Below, in pieces: positions 22,636 through 60,193 of a DNA stretch of 64,000 nucleotides; positions within the stretch are counted from its first letter, which is position 1; each line of letters starts with the position of its first letter. The stretch lies in NCBI RefSeq assembly GCF_003334385.1, contig NZ_QOWN01000001.1. One strand, written 5' to 3'. Source of the DNA: Escherichia coli. Lineage in GTDB: Bacteria; Pseudomonadota; Gammaproteobacteria; Enterobacterales; Enterobacteriaceae. The position numbers were made by a program, and so were the translations under genes. The notes under the pieces are model-generated. The model saw only the letters and a program-made list of their open reading frames with translations. It was not told where the DNA came from and ran no database searches.

Positions 22636-22651
22636 TGTGAATCGAATCACA
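22636..22651. promoter_or_regulatory. CRP binding site of the tna promoter
   Basis: tgtgaatcgaatcaca: perfect TGTGA-N6-TCACA palindrome about 80 bp upstream of the tnaC start. Confidence 0.8.
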
Positions 22652-55888: not shown

Positions 55889-57073
55889 TTAAACGGGCTG
55901 CCCCTGATGCGACATCCGCGTCGCCAGCGGCAGCCAGCACAGCACGATCAACAATCCCATTAAGGTCATCAACAACCCCAGGCTGCCCTGACCGGTTTGC
56001 GGCAACATCGCAGAGAGCGACGCCAGCACGCCGGAACCAATGTTTTGCAGACCGCCGACCAGCGCGCCAGCCGTGCCCGCCAGGAAGGGGAACGGCTCCA
56101 TCGCGCCGCTGGTCGCCAGCGGAAACAGCATCCCGGCACCGAAAAAGAACAGCGCGGCGGGAACGAGCAGCGTCCAGACATTCATCACGCCAAACCAGTC
56201 GGGGATCCACATCAGCAAGCCAGCCAGCAGGCAGCAGATAACCGACTGCCACATTAACGTGGAGAAGCGTTTATTGGGACGTCCGGCAAACCATGCGCCA
56301 AAAAACGCTGCCGGAATCGGCAGAATAAACAAAATACTGACCGTCATACTGCTCAGCCCTAACACCGCGCCCATCAGCACGCCGGAGCAGGCTTCAAAGG
56401 CGGCAATCCCGGCCAGACCGCCAATCAGCATCAGCAAATAACAGTTAAAACCGCTGTTACCGAAAAGCGTTTTATAACTGGTAAGCAGGCGCGTGCGCGG
56501 TGCATCGACCGGACGCGTTTCCGGCATCCAGCGGGCCATACTGAAGGTCACACCAGCACAAAGAACCAACAAAAAGAGATAACAGGCGCGCCAGTTCCAC
56601 ATCGTATCCAGCAGACCGCCGATTAGCGGTGCGAGCAACGGACTGACGAGAATCCCCATGTTTAACAGGCTGTTAGCATGGCGCAACTGTGTCCGTTCAT
56701 ATAAATCTCGCGGTAAAGTACGCGCCATTACGCCGCCAACGCCGGTGCCCATCCCCTGCATCGCGCTGGCGGCAATCAACACCGTCAAACTGGAGGTCGT
56801 GACCGCGACCAGCGTTGCCAGCATAAAAATGGACATTCCGACGAGGATCACCGGTCGGCGGCCCACGCGGTCGGAAATCGGGCCATAAAACAGCTGTGAG
56901 ACACCGTAAGTCAGCAGATAAGCGCCCATTACGCTCTGCACCGCCCCTTCACGGACGTTGAGATCGCGCGCCATATCGGCAATAGCTGGAATATAAATGG
57001 TTTGCGCCATCTGACCGACGGCCACGAGTAATACCAACATCAATAACAAATTGACGTTTCTTTGCCTTTTCAT
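55889..57073 (-). CDS. emrD: MFS multidrug efflux transporter EmrD
   Basis: 394 aa from ATG at 57073 (MKRQRNVNLLLMLVLLVAVGQ...). Confidence 0.92.
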   Translation of the reverse strand: MKRQRNVNLLLMLVLLVAVGQMAQTIYIPAIADMARDLNVREGAVQSVMGAYLLTYGVSQLFYGPISDRVGRRPVILVGMSIFMLATLVAVTTSSLTVLIAASAMQGMGTGVGGVMARTLPRDLYERTQLRHANSLLNMGILVSPLLAPLIGGLLDTMWNWRACYLFLLVLCAGVTFSMARWMPETRPVDAPRTRLLTSYKTLFGNSGFNCYLLMLIGGLAGIAAFEACSGVLMGAVLGLSSMTVSILFILPIPAAFFGAWFAGRPNKRFSTLMWQSVICCLLAGLLMWIPDWFGVMNVWTLLVPAALFFFGAGMLFPLATSGAMEPFPFLAGTAGALVGGLQNIGSGVLASLSAMLPQTGQGSLGLLMTLMGLLIVLCWLPLATRMSHQGQPV

Positions 57074-57250
57074 TATCACGGATGCTTTTATAAAAATAAT
57101 TAGAATAAGTCACTACGCATTCCCATAAATGCGGGAGAGGAATCTATCACATTGATGAATGTTAGCCAGATATACGCCAGGAATGGGGAATTGTTTAGCG
57201 GCAGAATATGTAAACAAAAGCGGCAATAAATGTTGCCGGGAGAGATGGTA

Positions 57251-57286
57251 GGGCGGATAAGATGCGTCAGCATCGCATCCGACACC
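57251..57286. repeat. REP-like element between emrD and tisB
   Basis: gggcggataagatgcgtcagcatcgcatccgacacc resembles the REP consensus. Confidence 0.5.
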
Positions 57287-57304
57287 AACCCGCACGCTAA
57301 ATAT

Positions 57305-57334
57305 AAAAGGGGAGCGGTTTCCCGCTCCCCTTTG
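57305..57334 (-). terminator. Intrinsic terminator of the tisAB transcript
   Basis: aaaaggggagcggtttcccgctcccctttt: perfect stem; on the minus strand it is followed by TTTTATAT. Confidence 0.8.
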
Positions 57335-57352
57335 GTGCGACTTGAATCTGAA

Positions 57353-57442
57353 TTACTTCAGGTATTTCAGAACAGCATCAAGCAGTTGCAGTGCTGCAAC
57401 AATGAGTTTGAGGATAAGAATGGCGATATCCACCAGGTTCAT
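57353..57442 (-). CDS. tisB: Type I toxin TisB (29-aa membrane peptide, SOS-induced)
   Basis: Reverse complement ATGAACCTGGTGGATATCGCCATTCTTATCCTCAAACTCATTGTTGCAGCACTGCAACTGCTTGATGCTGTTCTGAAATACCTGAAGTAA = MNLVDIAILILKLIVAALQLLDAVLKYLK*. Confidence 0.93.
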   Translation of the reverse strand: MNLVDIAILILKLIVAALQLLDAVLKYLK

Positions 57443-57676
57443 ACGCGTCTCCTGTGGTTCAGGAGCACTGCCAGCTGACGTACCTTTCCGCTGCCTGTTG
57501 CCAGCTGTTGTGCACGCGGTATCTCAAGGAGAAACGTTGTGCTTGTTGACATAACACAGTGTGCTCACGCGGGGTTAAGGCGCTGACGGCACCACCCGTT
57601 TCAGCCAGGACTTAGTGCGCCGGGTAACGATGCGGCCCCCGCATAACACATTGCGTACAGTGATATTATAGAAGTT

Positions 57677-57696
57677 TACTGTATAAATAAACAGTA
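57677..57696. promoter_or_regulatory. LexA box (SOS operator) in the tisAB/istR control region
   Basis: tactgtataaataaacagta: palindromic CTGT-N8-ACAG matching the LexA consensus TACTGTATATATATACAGTA. Confidence 0.88.
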
Positions 57697-57739
57697 ATAT
57701 TTGGACAAAACGCAAACTGTGATCGATACTCAACTATGC

Positions 57740-57880
57740 ACTAAATACGTCAAAATTCGTGCCGAAATTGCGCGTTCTGCGCGGAACACGTATACTTTCA
57801 GTGTTGACATAATACAGTGTGCTTTGCGGTTACCAGCCGCAGGCGACTGACGAAACCTCGCTCCGGCGGGGTTTTTTGTT
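57740..57880 (+). ncRNA. istR: IstR antitoxin sRNA (IstR-2 about 140 nt; IstR-1 is the 3' roughly 75 nt from about 57805); ends approximate
   Basis: Transcribed divergently from tisAB; 57803-57829 (gttgacataatacagtgtgctttgcgg) nearly repeats 57545-57572 in the tisAB leader, making the sRNA complementary to the minus-strand mRNA; T-run at 57871-57877. Confidence 0.6.
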
Positions 57881-58006
57881 ATCTGCAATTCAGTACAAAA
57901 CGTGATCAACCCCTCAATTTTCCCTTGCTGAAAAATTTTCCATTGTCTCCCCTGTAAAGCTGTGCTTGTATAAATATTGTTAAACACAAAACCAACAAGG
58001 TCCCCA

Positions 58007-58105
58007 ATGACTACTTCCATGCTCAACGCAAAACTACTACCAACTGCGCCATCCGCCGCAGTGGTCGTCGTGCGTGTGGTGGTGGTCGTCGGCAATGCGC
58101 CGTAG
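58007..58105 (+). CDS. ivbL: ilvB operon leader peptide (32 aa)
   Basis: MTTSMLNAKLLPTAPSAAVVVVRVVVVVGNAP*: Val-rich regulatory codon run with two Leu codons. Confidence 0.92.
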   Translation: MTTSMLNAKLLPTAPSAAVVVVRVVVVVGNAP

Positions 58106-58130
58106 GGACTGGAACAACACACGATTCCAA

Positions 58131-58165
58131 AACCCCGCCGGCGCAAACCGGGCGGGGTTTTTCGT
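58131..58165 (+). terminator. ilvBN attenuator terminator
   Basis: aaaaccccgccggcgcaaaccgggcggggtttttcgttt: GC-rich hairpin plus U-run between ivbL and ilvB. Confidence 0.85.
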
Positions 58166-58210
58166 TTAAGCACCTCCCGGAAAGTCGGCCCAGAAGAAAA
58201 GGACTGGAGC

Positions 58211-59899
58211 ATGGCAAGTTCGGGCACAACATCGACGCGTAAGCGCTTTACCGGCGCAGAATTTATCGTTCATTTCCTGGAACAGCAGGGCATTAAGATT
58301 GTGACAGGCATTCCGGGCGGTTCTATCCTGCCTGTTTACGATGCCTTAAGCCAAAGCACGCAAATCCGCCATATTCTGGCCCGTCATGAACAGGGCGCGG
58401 GCTTTATCGCTCAGGGAATGGCGCGCACCGACGGTAAACCGGCGGTCTGTATGGCCTGTAGCGGACCGGGTGCGACTAACCTGGTGACCGCCATTGCCGA
58501 TGCGCGGCTGGACTCCATCCCGCTGATTTGCATCACTGGTCAGGTTCCCGCCTCGATGATCGGCACCGACGCCTTCCAGGAAGTGGACACCTACGGCATC
58601 TCTATCCCCATCACCAAACACAACTATCTGGTCAGACATATCGAAGAACTCCCGCAGGTCATGAGCGATGCCTTCCGCATTGCGCAATCAGGCCGCCCAG
58701 GCCCGGTGTGGATAGACATTCCTAAGGATGTGCAAACGGCAGTTTTTGAGATTGAAACACAGCCCGCTATGGCAGAAAAAGCCGCCGCCCCCGCCTTTAG
58801 CGAAGAAAGCATTCGTGACGCAGCGGCGATGATTAACGCTGCCAAACGCCCGGTGCTTTATCTGGGCGGCGGTGTGATCAATGCGCCCGCACGGGTGCGT
58901 GAACTGGCGGAGAAAGCGCAACTGCCTACCACCATGACTTTAATGGCGCTGGGCATGTTGCCAAAAGCGCATCCGTTGTCGCTGGGTATGCTGGGGATGC
59001 ACGGCGTGCGCAGCACCAACTATATTTTGCAGGAGGCGGATTTGTTGATAGTGCTCGGTGCGCGTTTTGATGACCGGGCGATTGGCAAAACCGAGCAGTT
59101 CTGTCCGAATGCCAAAATCATTCATGTCGATATCGACCGTGCAGAGCTGGGTAAAATCAAGCAGCCGCACGTGGCGATTCAGGCGGATGTTGATGACGTG
59201 CTGGCGCAGTTGATCCCGCTGGTGGAAGCGCAACCGCGTGCAGAGTGGCACCAGTTGGTAGCGGATTTGCAGCGTGAGTTTCCGTGTCCAATCCCGAAAG
59301 CGTGCGATCCGTTAAGCCATTACGGCCTGATCAACGCCGTTGCCGCCTGTGTCGATGACAATGCAATTATCACCACCGACGTTGGTCAGCATCAGATGTG
59401 GACCGCGCAAGCTTATCCGCTCAATCGCCCACGCCAGTGGCTGACCTCCGGTGGGCTGGGCACGATGGGTTTTGGCCTGCCTGCGGCGATTGGCGCTGCG
59501 CTGGCGAACCCGGATCGCAAAGTGTTGTGTTTCTCCGGCGACGGCAGCCTGATGATGAATATTCAGGAGATGGCGACCGCCAGTGAAAATCAGCTGGATG
59601 TCAAAATCATTCTGATGAACAACGAAGCGCTGGGGCTGGTGCATCAGCAACAGAGTCTGTTCTACGAGCAAGGCGTTTTTGCCGCCACCTATCCGGGCAA
59701 AATCAACTTTATGCAGATTGCCGCCGGATTCGGCCTCGAAACCTGTGATTTGAATAACGAAGCCGATCCGCAGGCTTCATTGCAGGAAATCATCAATCGC
59801 CCTGGCCCGGCGCTGATCCATGTGCGCATTGATGCCGAAGAAAAAGTTTACCCGATGGTGCCGCCAGGTGCGGCGAATACTGAAATGGTGGGGGAATAA
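58211..59899 (+). CDS. ilvB: Acetolactate synthase I large subunit (ThDP-dependent)
   Basis: 562 aa; ThDP-binding motif GDGS...NN. Confidence 0.95.
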   Translation: MASSGTTSTRKRFTGAEFIVHFLEQQGIKIVTGIPGGSILPVYDALSQSTQIRHILARHEQGAGFIAQGMARTDGKPAVCMACSGPGATNLVTAIADARLDSIPLICITGQVPASMIGTDAFQEVDTYGISIPITKHNYLVRHIEELPQVMSDAFRIAQSGRPGPVWIDIPKDVQTAVFEIETQPAMAEKAAAPAFSEESIRDAAAMINAAKRPVLYLGGGVINAPARVRELAEKAQLPTTMTLMALGMLPKAHPLSLGMLGMHGVRSTNYILQEADLLIVLGARFDDRAIGKTEQFCPNAKIIHVDIDRAELGKIKQPHVAIQADVDDVLAQLIPLVEAQPRAEWHQLVADLQREFPCPIPKACDPLSHYGLINAVAACVDDNAIITTDVGQHQMWTAQAYPLNRPRQWLTSGGLGTMGFGLPAAIGAALANPDRKVLCFSGDGSLMMNIQEMATASENQLDVKIILMNNEALGLVHQQQSLFYEQGVFAATYPGKINFMQIAAGFGLETCDLNNEADPQASLQEIINRPGPALIHVRIDAEEKVYPMVPPGAANTEMVGE

Positions 59900-59902
59900 G
59901 CC

Positions 59903-60193
59903 ATGCAAAACACAACTTATGACAACGTAATTCTGGAGCTCACCGTTCGCAACCATCCGGGCGTAATGACCCACGTTTGTGGCCTTTTTGCCCGCCGCGC
60001 TTTTAACGTTGAAGGCATTCTTTGTCTGCCGATTCAGGACAGCGACAAAAGCCATATCTGGCTACTGGTCAATGACGACCAGCGTCTGGAGCAGATGATA
60101 AGCCAAATCGATAAGCTGGAAGATGTCGTGAAAGTGCAGCGTAATCAGTCCGATCCGACGATGTTTAACAAGATCGCGGTGTTTTTTCAGTAA
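59903..60193 (+). CDS. ilvN: Acetolactate synthase I small (regulatory) subunit
   Basis: 96-aa ACT-domain protein 3 nt after ilvB. Confidence 0.93.

Follow-up and report, generated by a model that had tools for sequence, protein, structure and literature searches.

The window, a stretch of 64,000 nucleotides, is E. coli chromosome. The RefSeq annotation gives the order emrD, ysdE, tisB, ivbL, ilvB, ilvN, uhpA, and uhpB for the neighborhood studied (Table 1). Of 5426 complete E. coli genomes, 5419 contain the 381 bases around the ivbL leader with at least 95% identity. Many E. coli genomes carry the stretch with 100% identity, and the annotation there reads 'ivbL: ilvB operon leader peptide IvbL', followed by ilvB. 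The element is that of E. coli K-12 (RefSeq ivbL, WP_001300753.1), with the same 32-aa peptide and terminator. It shares the neighbors emrD, tisB/istR, ivbL, ilvB, ilvN, and uhpA, and no difference was detected. The identity of the locus, the open reading frame (ORF), the terminator, the alternative pairing and its exclusivity, and the conservation were all determined in silico.

The two genes downstream of the leader match the NCBIfam equivalogs for ilvB and ilvN. They are genes for making the amino acids coded in the leader, as expected for an attenuator. Directly 5' of the ilvB promoter lies the tisB/istR type I toxin-antitoxin locus. Rfam covariance models were run over positions 56800 to 58800, and istR was the only genuine match. 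No amino-acid leader family (Leu, Thr, His, Trp, or others) was found in this interval at E <= 1; Rfam evidently has no model for the ilvB leader. Minus-strand matches to P6 and STnc310 scored 22 and 21 bits against gathering thresholds of 50 and 40. They cover the terminator-like hairpin only and were rejected.

Table 1. Features of the ivbL-ilvBN locus and its upstream neighbors, in positions of the window
Feature	Positions	Strand	Evidence and remarks
ysdE small ORF	57155-57229	+	RefSeq; same as the 25-aa frame at 57152-57229 in the ORF list; lies between emrD and tisB
tisB ORF, encodes MNLVDIAILILKLIVAALQLLDAVLKYLK	57353-57442	-	ORF list, annotation
istR	57748-57877	+	Rfam RF01400, 150 bits; own terminator at 57852-57875
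Candidate -10 hexamer of the ilvB promoter, TATAAA	57969-57974	+	Putative; read from the sequence
ivbL 5' UTR, C/A-rich tract and Shine-Dalgarno AAGG	57982-58006	+	Sequence; reported GcvB target region
ivbL leader ORF, 32 codons and TAG (58103-58105)	58007-58105	+	ORF list, Pfam, NCBIfam, RefSeq annotation
Leu10-Leu11, CUA-CUA	58034-58039	+	All six bases invariant in 73 distinct enterobacterial leaders
Small hairpin just 5' of the Val run, 58044-58048/58057-58061	58044-58061	+	Covariation; local fold -9.8 kcal/mol, z = -2.6
Regulatory Val run VVVV-R-VVVVV, codons 19-28	58061-58090	+	Codon count; kept in 78/78 loci (best 80 of 426 relatives)
Antiterminator 5' arm: last base of Asn30 (U), Ala31 GCG, Pro32 CCG, UAG stop, GG	58096-58107	+	Predicted pairing, conservation, RNAalifold
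Inner hairpin enclosed by the antiterminator, 58110-58115/58123-58129	58110-58129	+	Predicted folds
Intrinsic terminator (attenuator)	58129-58167	+	Stem 58129-58141/58148-58161; U run 58158-58162, CG, UUU
Antiterminator 3' arm	58134-58145	+	Predicted pairing; 58134-58141 also in terminator 5' arm
ilvB, acetolactate synthase I large subunit, regulated gene	58211-59899	+	NCBIfam NF006016, 1087.5 bits vs cut-off 870; RefSeq annotation
ilvN, acetolactate synthase I small subunit	59903-60193	+	NCBIfam NF006036, 184.6 bits vs cut-off 128; RefSeq annotation

The leader ORF encodes the peptide MTTSMLNAKLLPTAPSAAVVVVRVVVVVGNAP. It contains 9 Val, 3 Leu, and no Ile. The Val codons are codons 19 to 22 and 24 to 28, and codons 17 to 28 (58055-58090) read AAVVVVRVVVVV. 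The Leu codons are CUC at 58022 (codon 6) and the CUA pair at codons 10 and 11. CUA is a rare Leu codon that is also found in the leader of the leu operon. Ala accounts for five further codons of ivbL and Thr for three; Hauser and Hatfield (1984) reportedly saw effects of Ala and Thr too. A Shine-Dalgarno sequence, AAGG, lies at 57997-58000, 6 nt ahead of the ATG (58007). The peptide matches Pfam PF08049 (IlvB_leader) with 72.5 bits and E = 2.3e-20 over residues 1 to 32 of 32. It matches NCBIfam NF007579, the IvbL equivalog, with 78.7 bits against a cut-off of 60. The six-frame translation of the whole window holds only three stretches of 10 residues with 8 or more Val; these overlap one another, and all are in ivbL. 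The initial annotation had described a Val/Leu-rich leader peptide with Leu codons near the Val run, and both parts of that description are borne out.

The terminator stem has 13 pairs and one bulge. Its G+C core is 58133-58139/58151-58157 (CCCCGCC/GGCGGGG), and the tail is UUUUU-CG-UUU. The fold has an energy of -21.6 kcal/mol (z = -2.65 against dinucleotide shuffles), and 2 of 200 shuffles were equally stable. The 164-nt leader region as a whole folds better than 199 of 200 shuffles. A strong GC hairpin with a U run about 25 nt after the ORF had been claimed for this site. The hairpin and run are there. Counted from the stop codon, the first A-U pair comes after 23 nt and the G+C core after 27 nt, in agreement with the claimed distance. 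A simple consensus terminator scan did not list the attenuator hairpin, because the loop measures 11 nt when no bulge is allowed and the scan accepts at most 8; thermodynamic folds recover it. A leaky 3' end named 'ivbL_t' has been reported from Term-seq data (PMC9023263).

A second structure is predicted in the transcript before the 3' arm of the terminator is made. The nascent transcript was modeled as ending at 58146-58147. In it, the 3' end of the leader ORF pairs with a segment downstream to form an antiterminator (58096-58107/58134-58145). The antiterminator segment folds with -21.9 kcal/mol (z = -4.0), and none of 200 shuffles was as stable. The enclosed inner hairpin contributes about 4.7 kcal/mol of this. 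Antiterminator and terminator are nearly isoenergetic (-21.9 and -21.6 kcal/mol). Positions 58134-58141 are common to both, so the two structures cannot coexist. The exclusive pairing is compatible with all 73 sequences of the alignment described below. The initial annotation had proposed folding this region for alternative, mutually exclusive structures, and the antiterminator and terminator are such a pair.

The full-length transcript favors the terminator. Its terminator state is about 4 kcal/mol lower and would thus win whenever the antiterminator has not formed first. In these models, the energy gap at full length fits a kinetic switch. The fold of the whole leader gives the terminator and a long imperfect hairpin inside the ORF. 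A test of duplex energy between the terminator 5' arm and shuffled upstream sequence was not significant, the real value being matched or beaten in 194 of 1000 shuffles. This test is crude: a G+C-rich arm easily finds partners, and the best duplex was an unrealistic split pairing. It was superseded by the antiterminator fold z-score and by folding with barred pairs.

A four-segment anatomy was considered in place of this pairing. In this classical model, the G/U-rich Val run serves as segment 2 (58061-58093) and has two alternative partners: the C/A-rich 5' half of the ORF (1:2, the protector) or the C-rich 5' arm of the terminator (2:3, the antiterminator). The segment near the stop codon, 58096-58107, would then have no antiterminator role. 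The unconstrained minimum-energy fold does contain a long 1:2-like hairpin, 58007-58020/58076-58089 with 58026-58030/58071-58075. In the duplex search, bases 58078-58086 of the Val run can pair with 58131-58139. Such a layout would also explain termination without translation. Several results argue against it. A ribosome stalled in the Val run covers segment 2, so a 2:3 antiterminator could not serve Val starvation. Barring 58096-58107 from downstream pairing costs the nascent transcript 6 to 14 kcal/mol, the margin by which the antiterminator beats the next-best fold, and no other antiterminator approaches it. The long 1:2 helix is only 58 to 87% paired across species and has no changes on both sides. 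The Val-run hairpin is no better than shuffles (z = -0.33). We consider the four-segment anatomy unlikely and retain the antiterminator at 58096-58107/58134-58145.

The effect of ribosome position was modeled on the transcript ending at 58147. The ribosome was represented as a 28-nt unpaired mask around the A-site codon, and folding was taken at equilibrium; both are simplifications. The probability of the antiterminator was 0.98 to 1.00 without a ribosome or with the A site anywhere from Leu10 through Val27. Once the A site was placed at Val28, Asn30, or the stop codon, it fell to 0.00. Ribosome position decides which structure forms in this model, a computed rather than an experimental result.

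These results suggest the following mechanism. A ribosome would translate the 32-codon leader while RNA polymerase proceeds towards the terminator. With charged tRNA-Val and tRNA-Leu plentiful, the ribosome would reach codons 28 to 32 or the UAG and cover 58096-58107. The antiterminator would then be blocked, the terminator stem (58129-58161) and its U run would form, and transcription would stop before ilvB. Under a shortage of Val or Leu, the ribosome would stall at the CUA-CUA Leu codons or at Val codons 19 to 27. The stalled ribosome would leave 58096-58107 free to pair with 58134-58145 once that segment is made. The antiterminator would sequester the terminator 5' arm, and polymerase would read through into ilvBN. 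We infer the part played by ribosome position from the folding model; the response of expression to Val and Leu is taken from the literature. Reporters of ivbL show a dose response to Val and Leu, and the Leu response is lost when the Leu codons are replaced (PMC11187965). A mutation in ivbL has been found in a Leu overproducer (PMC6127279).

The element is very probably the ivbL-ilvBN ribosome-mediated transcription attenuator of E. coli. It shows each of the defining traits of leader-peptide attenuators that were examined in silico, with only weak candidates for a protector hairpin. The Val and Leu attenuation arrangement named in the initial annotation agrees with the identity to annotated ivbL-ilvB, the exclusive structures, the conservation, and the literature. 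The attenuator has long been known and is ordinary (Friden et al. 1982, cited in PMC6123439). The part of PMC6123439 that cites Friden et al. 1982 places ilvBN under attenuation via a 32-aa leader. Four papers treat ivbL as the Val/Leu-responsive attenuator of ilvBN (PMC6123439, PMC11187965, PMC6127279, and PMC11347164), and the last of these describes attenuation of ilvBN through the ivbL leader.

Conservation was assessed in a scan with IlvB, using one genome per species. The best 80 of 426 relatives were taken. All are Enterobacteriaceae, and their proteins are 83 to 99% identical. Among these best 80 of 426, 78 loci extend far enough 5' of ilvB, and every one of them has an ivbL leader. 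All 78 (best 80 of 426 relatives) also keep the Val run, the pair of CUA Leu codons, and the arms of both structures. The C-terminal two-thirds of the leader, (A)VVVV[R/S]VVVVVG[N/S/I]AP, and the LL pair are conserved in these 78 loci from the best 80 of 426, and the N-terminus is variable. One locus, L040 (CACSKA010000004.1), is titled 'Chryseobacterium sp. 18061', but its ilvB is enterobacterial (86% identical) and is preceded by a typical ivbL leader. That assembly is probably contaminated or mislabeled.

The alignment contained 73 distinct enterobacterial sequences. It is almost invariant from the Val run through the U run. Mean column identity is 0.98 over codons 19 to 32 and 0.97 in the terminator region, and it drops to 0.67 in the bases directly after. 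Fourfold third positions in leader codons 17 to 32 have a mean identity of 0.94, and 47% of them are invariant; comparable ilvB codons have 0.70 and 5%. None of the 73 sequences departs from Ala31 GCG, Pro32 CCG, or the UAG stop, as RNA-level constraint on the antiterminator arm predicts. Judged from the alignment, the conservation of synonymous sites and of the terminator is strong evidence for selection on the RNA itself. The lone non-Val codon inside the Val run, at 58073-58075, encodes Arg (CGU) in nearly every genus, and four Klebsiella-type leaders have Ser (UCU) there. The third base of this codon never changes, and the interruption of the Val run stays at a fixed place.

The predicted stems were scored on the same 73 sequences. 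In the terminator, pairing holds in 98.7% of cells, and 11 of the 13 pairs show no variation. The antiterminator arms pair in 98.6% of cells, with 8 of 10 pairs invariant. No covariation was found in either stem across these sequences. The arms are invariant, so covariation can neither confirm nor contradict them. The comparative support for the two stems consists of conservation, which could also reflect other constraints.

Covariation was found only in the inner hairpin and in the small hairpin just 5' of the Val run. In the inner hairpin, one pair switches from A-U to U-A in 11 sequences. In the small hairpin, the pair 58045:58060 is U-A in 39 of the 73 sequences, C-G in 33, and U-G in 1, and it is never unpaired. 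These two bases are the synonymous third positions of Thr13 and Ala18. On the ilvB tree, the pair requires 4 state changes by parsimony, one of them being the single U-G intermediate. This hairpin may be part of a pause or 1:2 structure. The RNAalifold consensus of the full alignment contains the antiterminator and this hairpin.

These comparisons also bear on the view that a chance ORF lies beside a chance hairpin. The nonsignificant duplex shuffle test (194 of 1000) is the only result in its favor. It is refuted by conservation: among the best 80 of 426 relatives, which span genera with IlvB proteins 83 to 99% identical, 78 of 78 loci have the leader. The leader also holds the sole Val-rich stretch in six frames of 64 kb, and it matches curated families in Pfam and NCBIfam. 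We give coincidence practically no weight.

The start of the transcript can be placed tentatively. With the TATAAA hexamer as the -10 element, the ilvB transcript would start near 57981-57984, about 25 nt 5' of ivbL. A consensus promoter scan did not call this hexamer at 57969-57974. A weak -35 would fit dependence on cAMP-CRP. The paper of Friden et al. 1982 (PMC6123439, reference 80) mentions such dependence in its title. A candidate CRP site at 57901-57916 (CGTGATCAACCCCTCA) has 3 mismatches. There are 191 such matches in the window against 211 expected; the candidate is thus no better than chance, gives no evidence from sequence alone, and was rejected. A perfect CRP-type palindrome, TGTGA-N6-TCACA (TGTGAATCGAATCACA), lies far from the leader at 22636-22651 on the plus strand. 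It is the sole match with zero mismatches in the window.

The 5' UTR of ivbL (57982-58006) is poorly conserved, with a mean column identity of 0.74. It is contacted by region R1 of the small RNA (sRNA) GcvB, and translation of ivbL is repressed (PMC9299463). Fusions of ivbL and of ilvB are both repressed by GcvB through R1 (PMC9299463). The spacer between ivbL and ilvB is cut by RNase E (PMC11347164). The part of this spacer just before the ilvB ATG, 58166-58210 (AAAGTCGGCCCAGAAGAAAAGGACTGGAGCATG), is well conserved, with a mean identity of 0.80 over the last 45 nt. This conservation fits reports of a second GcvB site and of RNase E sites in that segment (PMC9299463, PMC11347164).

The spacer varies in length. 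From the ivbL stop to the ilvB ATG it is 163 to 231 nt in some Citrobacter, Klebsiella, Kluyvera, and Enterobacteriaceae genomes versus about 100 to 107 nt. The insertions are about 125 bp in loci L007 (~1035-1170), L022, and L054 and about 60 to 80 bp in loci L016, L044, and L052. One example of inserted sequence is ...GTGAGCGAATCCCCAGGAGCGTACATAGGTACGTGACTGGGGTGA... The inserts resemble ERIC (enterobacterial repetitive intergenic consensus) elements. They sit inside the transcribed leader-ilvB spacer, and the conserved AAAGTCGGCCCAGAA..AAGGACTGGAGCATG is intact. The sequence before the ilvB ATG is kept even in loci with ERIC-like insertions.

The sRNA and RNase E data raise another reading of the hairpin. 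It could be the constitutive terminator of a free-standing small transcript, either a peptide gene or an sRNA, with ilvBN controlled by its own promoter, by CRP, or by GcvB with RNase E. The terminated leader is an abundant RNA that was ligated to GcvB in RIL-seq and CLASH, and GcvB represses the ivbL and ilvB fusions (PMC9299463). The RNase E cuts in the spacer (PMC11347164) and the fair conservation of the spacer agree with this reading too. A promoter scan between the terminator and ilvB found no promoter-like site. A free-standing transcript does not account for the codon content (Val and Leu), for the invariance at synonymous sites, or for the alternative structure that overlaps the terminator. 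Read-through that depends on Val and Leu has been reported from reporters (PMC11187965). We judge this reading very improbable. The effects of the sRNA and of RNase E are an added layer and not a replacement of attenuation.

The folds were searched for a protector, a 1:2 structure that sequesters 58096-58107 in an untranslated leader, and only weak candidates were found. One is an invariant 4-bp hairpin, 58090-58093/58099-58102. The other, close to the Shine-Dalgarno sequence, is GGUCCC:GGGACU (57999-58004/58105-58110), which is 85.8% paired and has a central mismatch in 49 of 73 sequences; no convincing covariation was found for it in the 73 sequences. The covarying hairpin at 58044-58061 lies clear of the antiterminator arm. 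With no strong protector in the folds, the model predicts the antiterminator, and read-through, for an untranslated ivbL leader. Early in vitro work (papers of 1982-83) is said to have found efficient termination, which disagrees with the modeled read-through.

The modeled read-through bears on control by GcvB. Lower translation of ivbL would raise read-through into ilvBN and would not superattenuate. GcvB would then paradoxically increase transcription into ilvBN while repressing translation of ilvB at its second site, and the terminated leader could titrate GcvB. We regard this proposal, which follows from the folding model, as quite improbable. If it were true, ivbL would be a coupling point of sRNA control and attenuation, with a logic opposite to the trp paradigm.

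Other attenuators of amino acid operons share the logic of ivbL to different degrees. The ilvL-ilvGMEDA and leuL-leuABCD systems of E. coli and Salmonella likewise combine a short leader ORF of branched-chain codons, a terminator, and a competing antiterminator (PMC6123439). The ivbL leader has no sequence similarity to them. Its branched-chain codons are Val and Leu without Ile, in contrast to ilvL, so that it cannot sense Ile directly. With trpL it has in common the choice between terminator and antiterminator that depends on ribosome position. In trpL, a strong 1:2 hairpin makes the untranslated leader terminate, whereas no comparably strong protector was found in ivbL. Unlike in the trp paradigm, the stop codon lies within the 5' arm of the ivbL antiterminator, so it may be enough that a terminating ribosome simply covers this arm. 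The ilvBNC operon of Corynebacterium glutamicum likewise has a Val/Leu/Ile-rich leader peptide and a multi-hairpin attenuator 5' of ilvB (PMC11857589, PMC10272879). Its sequence is unrelated and its operon content (ilvBNC) is different. The C. glutamicum attenuator arose or diverged independently of ivbL.

For a genome scan, ivbL is the correct annotation, and it explains the short Val-rich ORF and the hairpin 5' of ilvB. The reasoning of the initial annotation, made from the bases alone, was sound. This analysis adds a concrete predicted antiterminator pairing that overlaps the stop codon and is backed by extreme conservation of synonymous sites across the Enterobacteriaceae.
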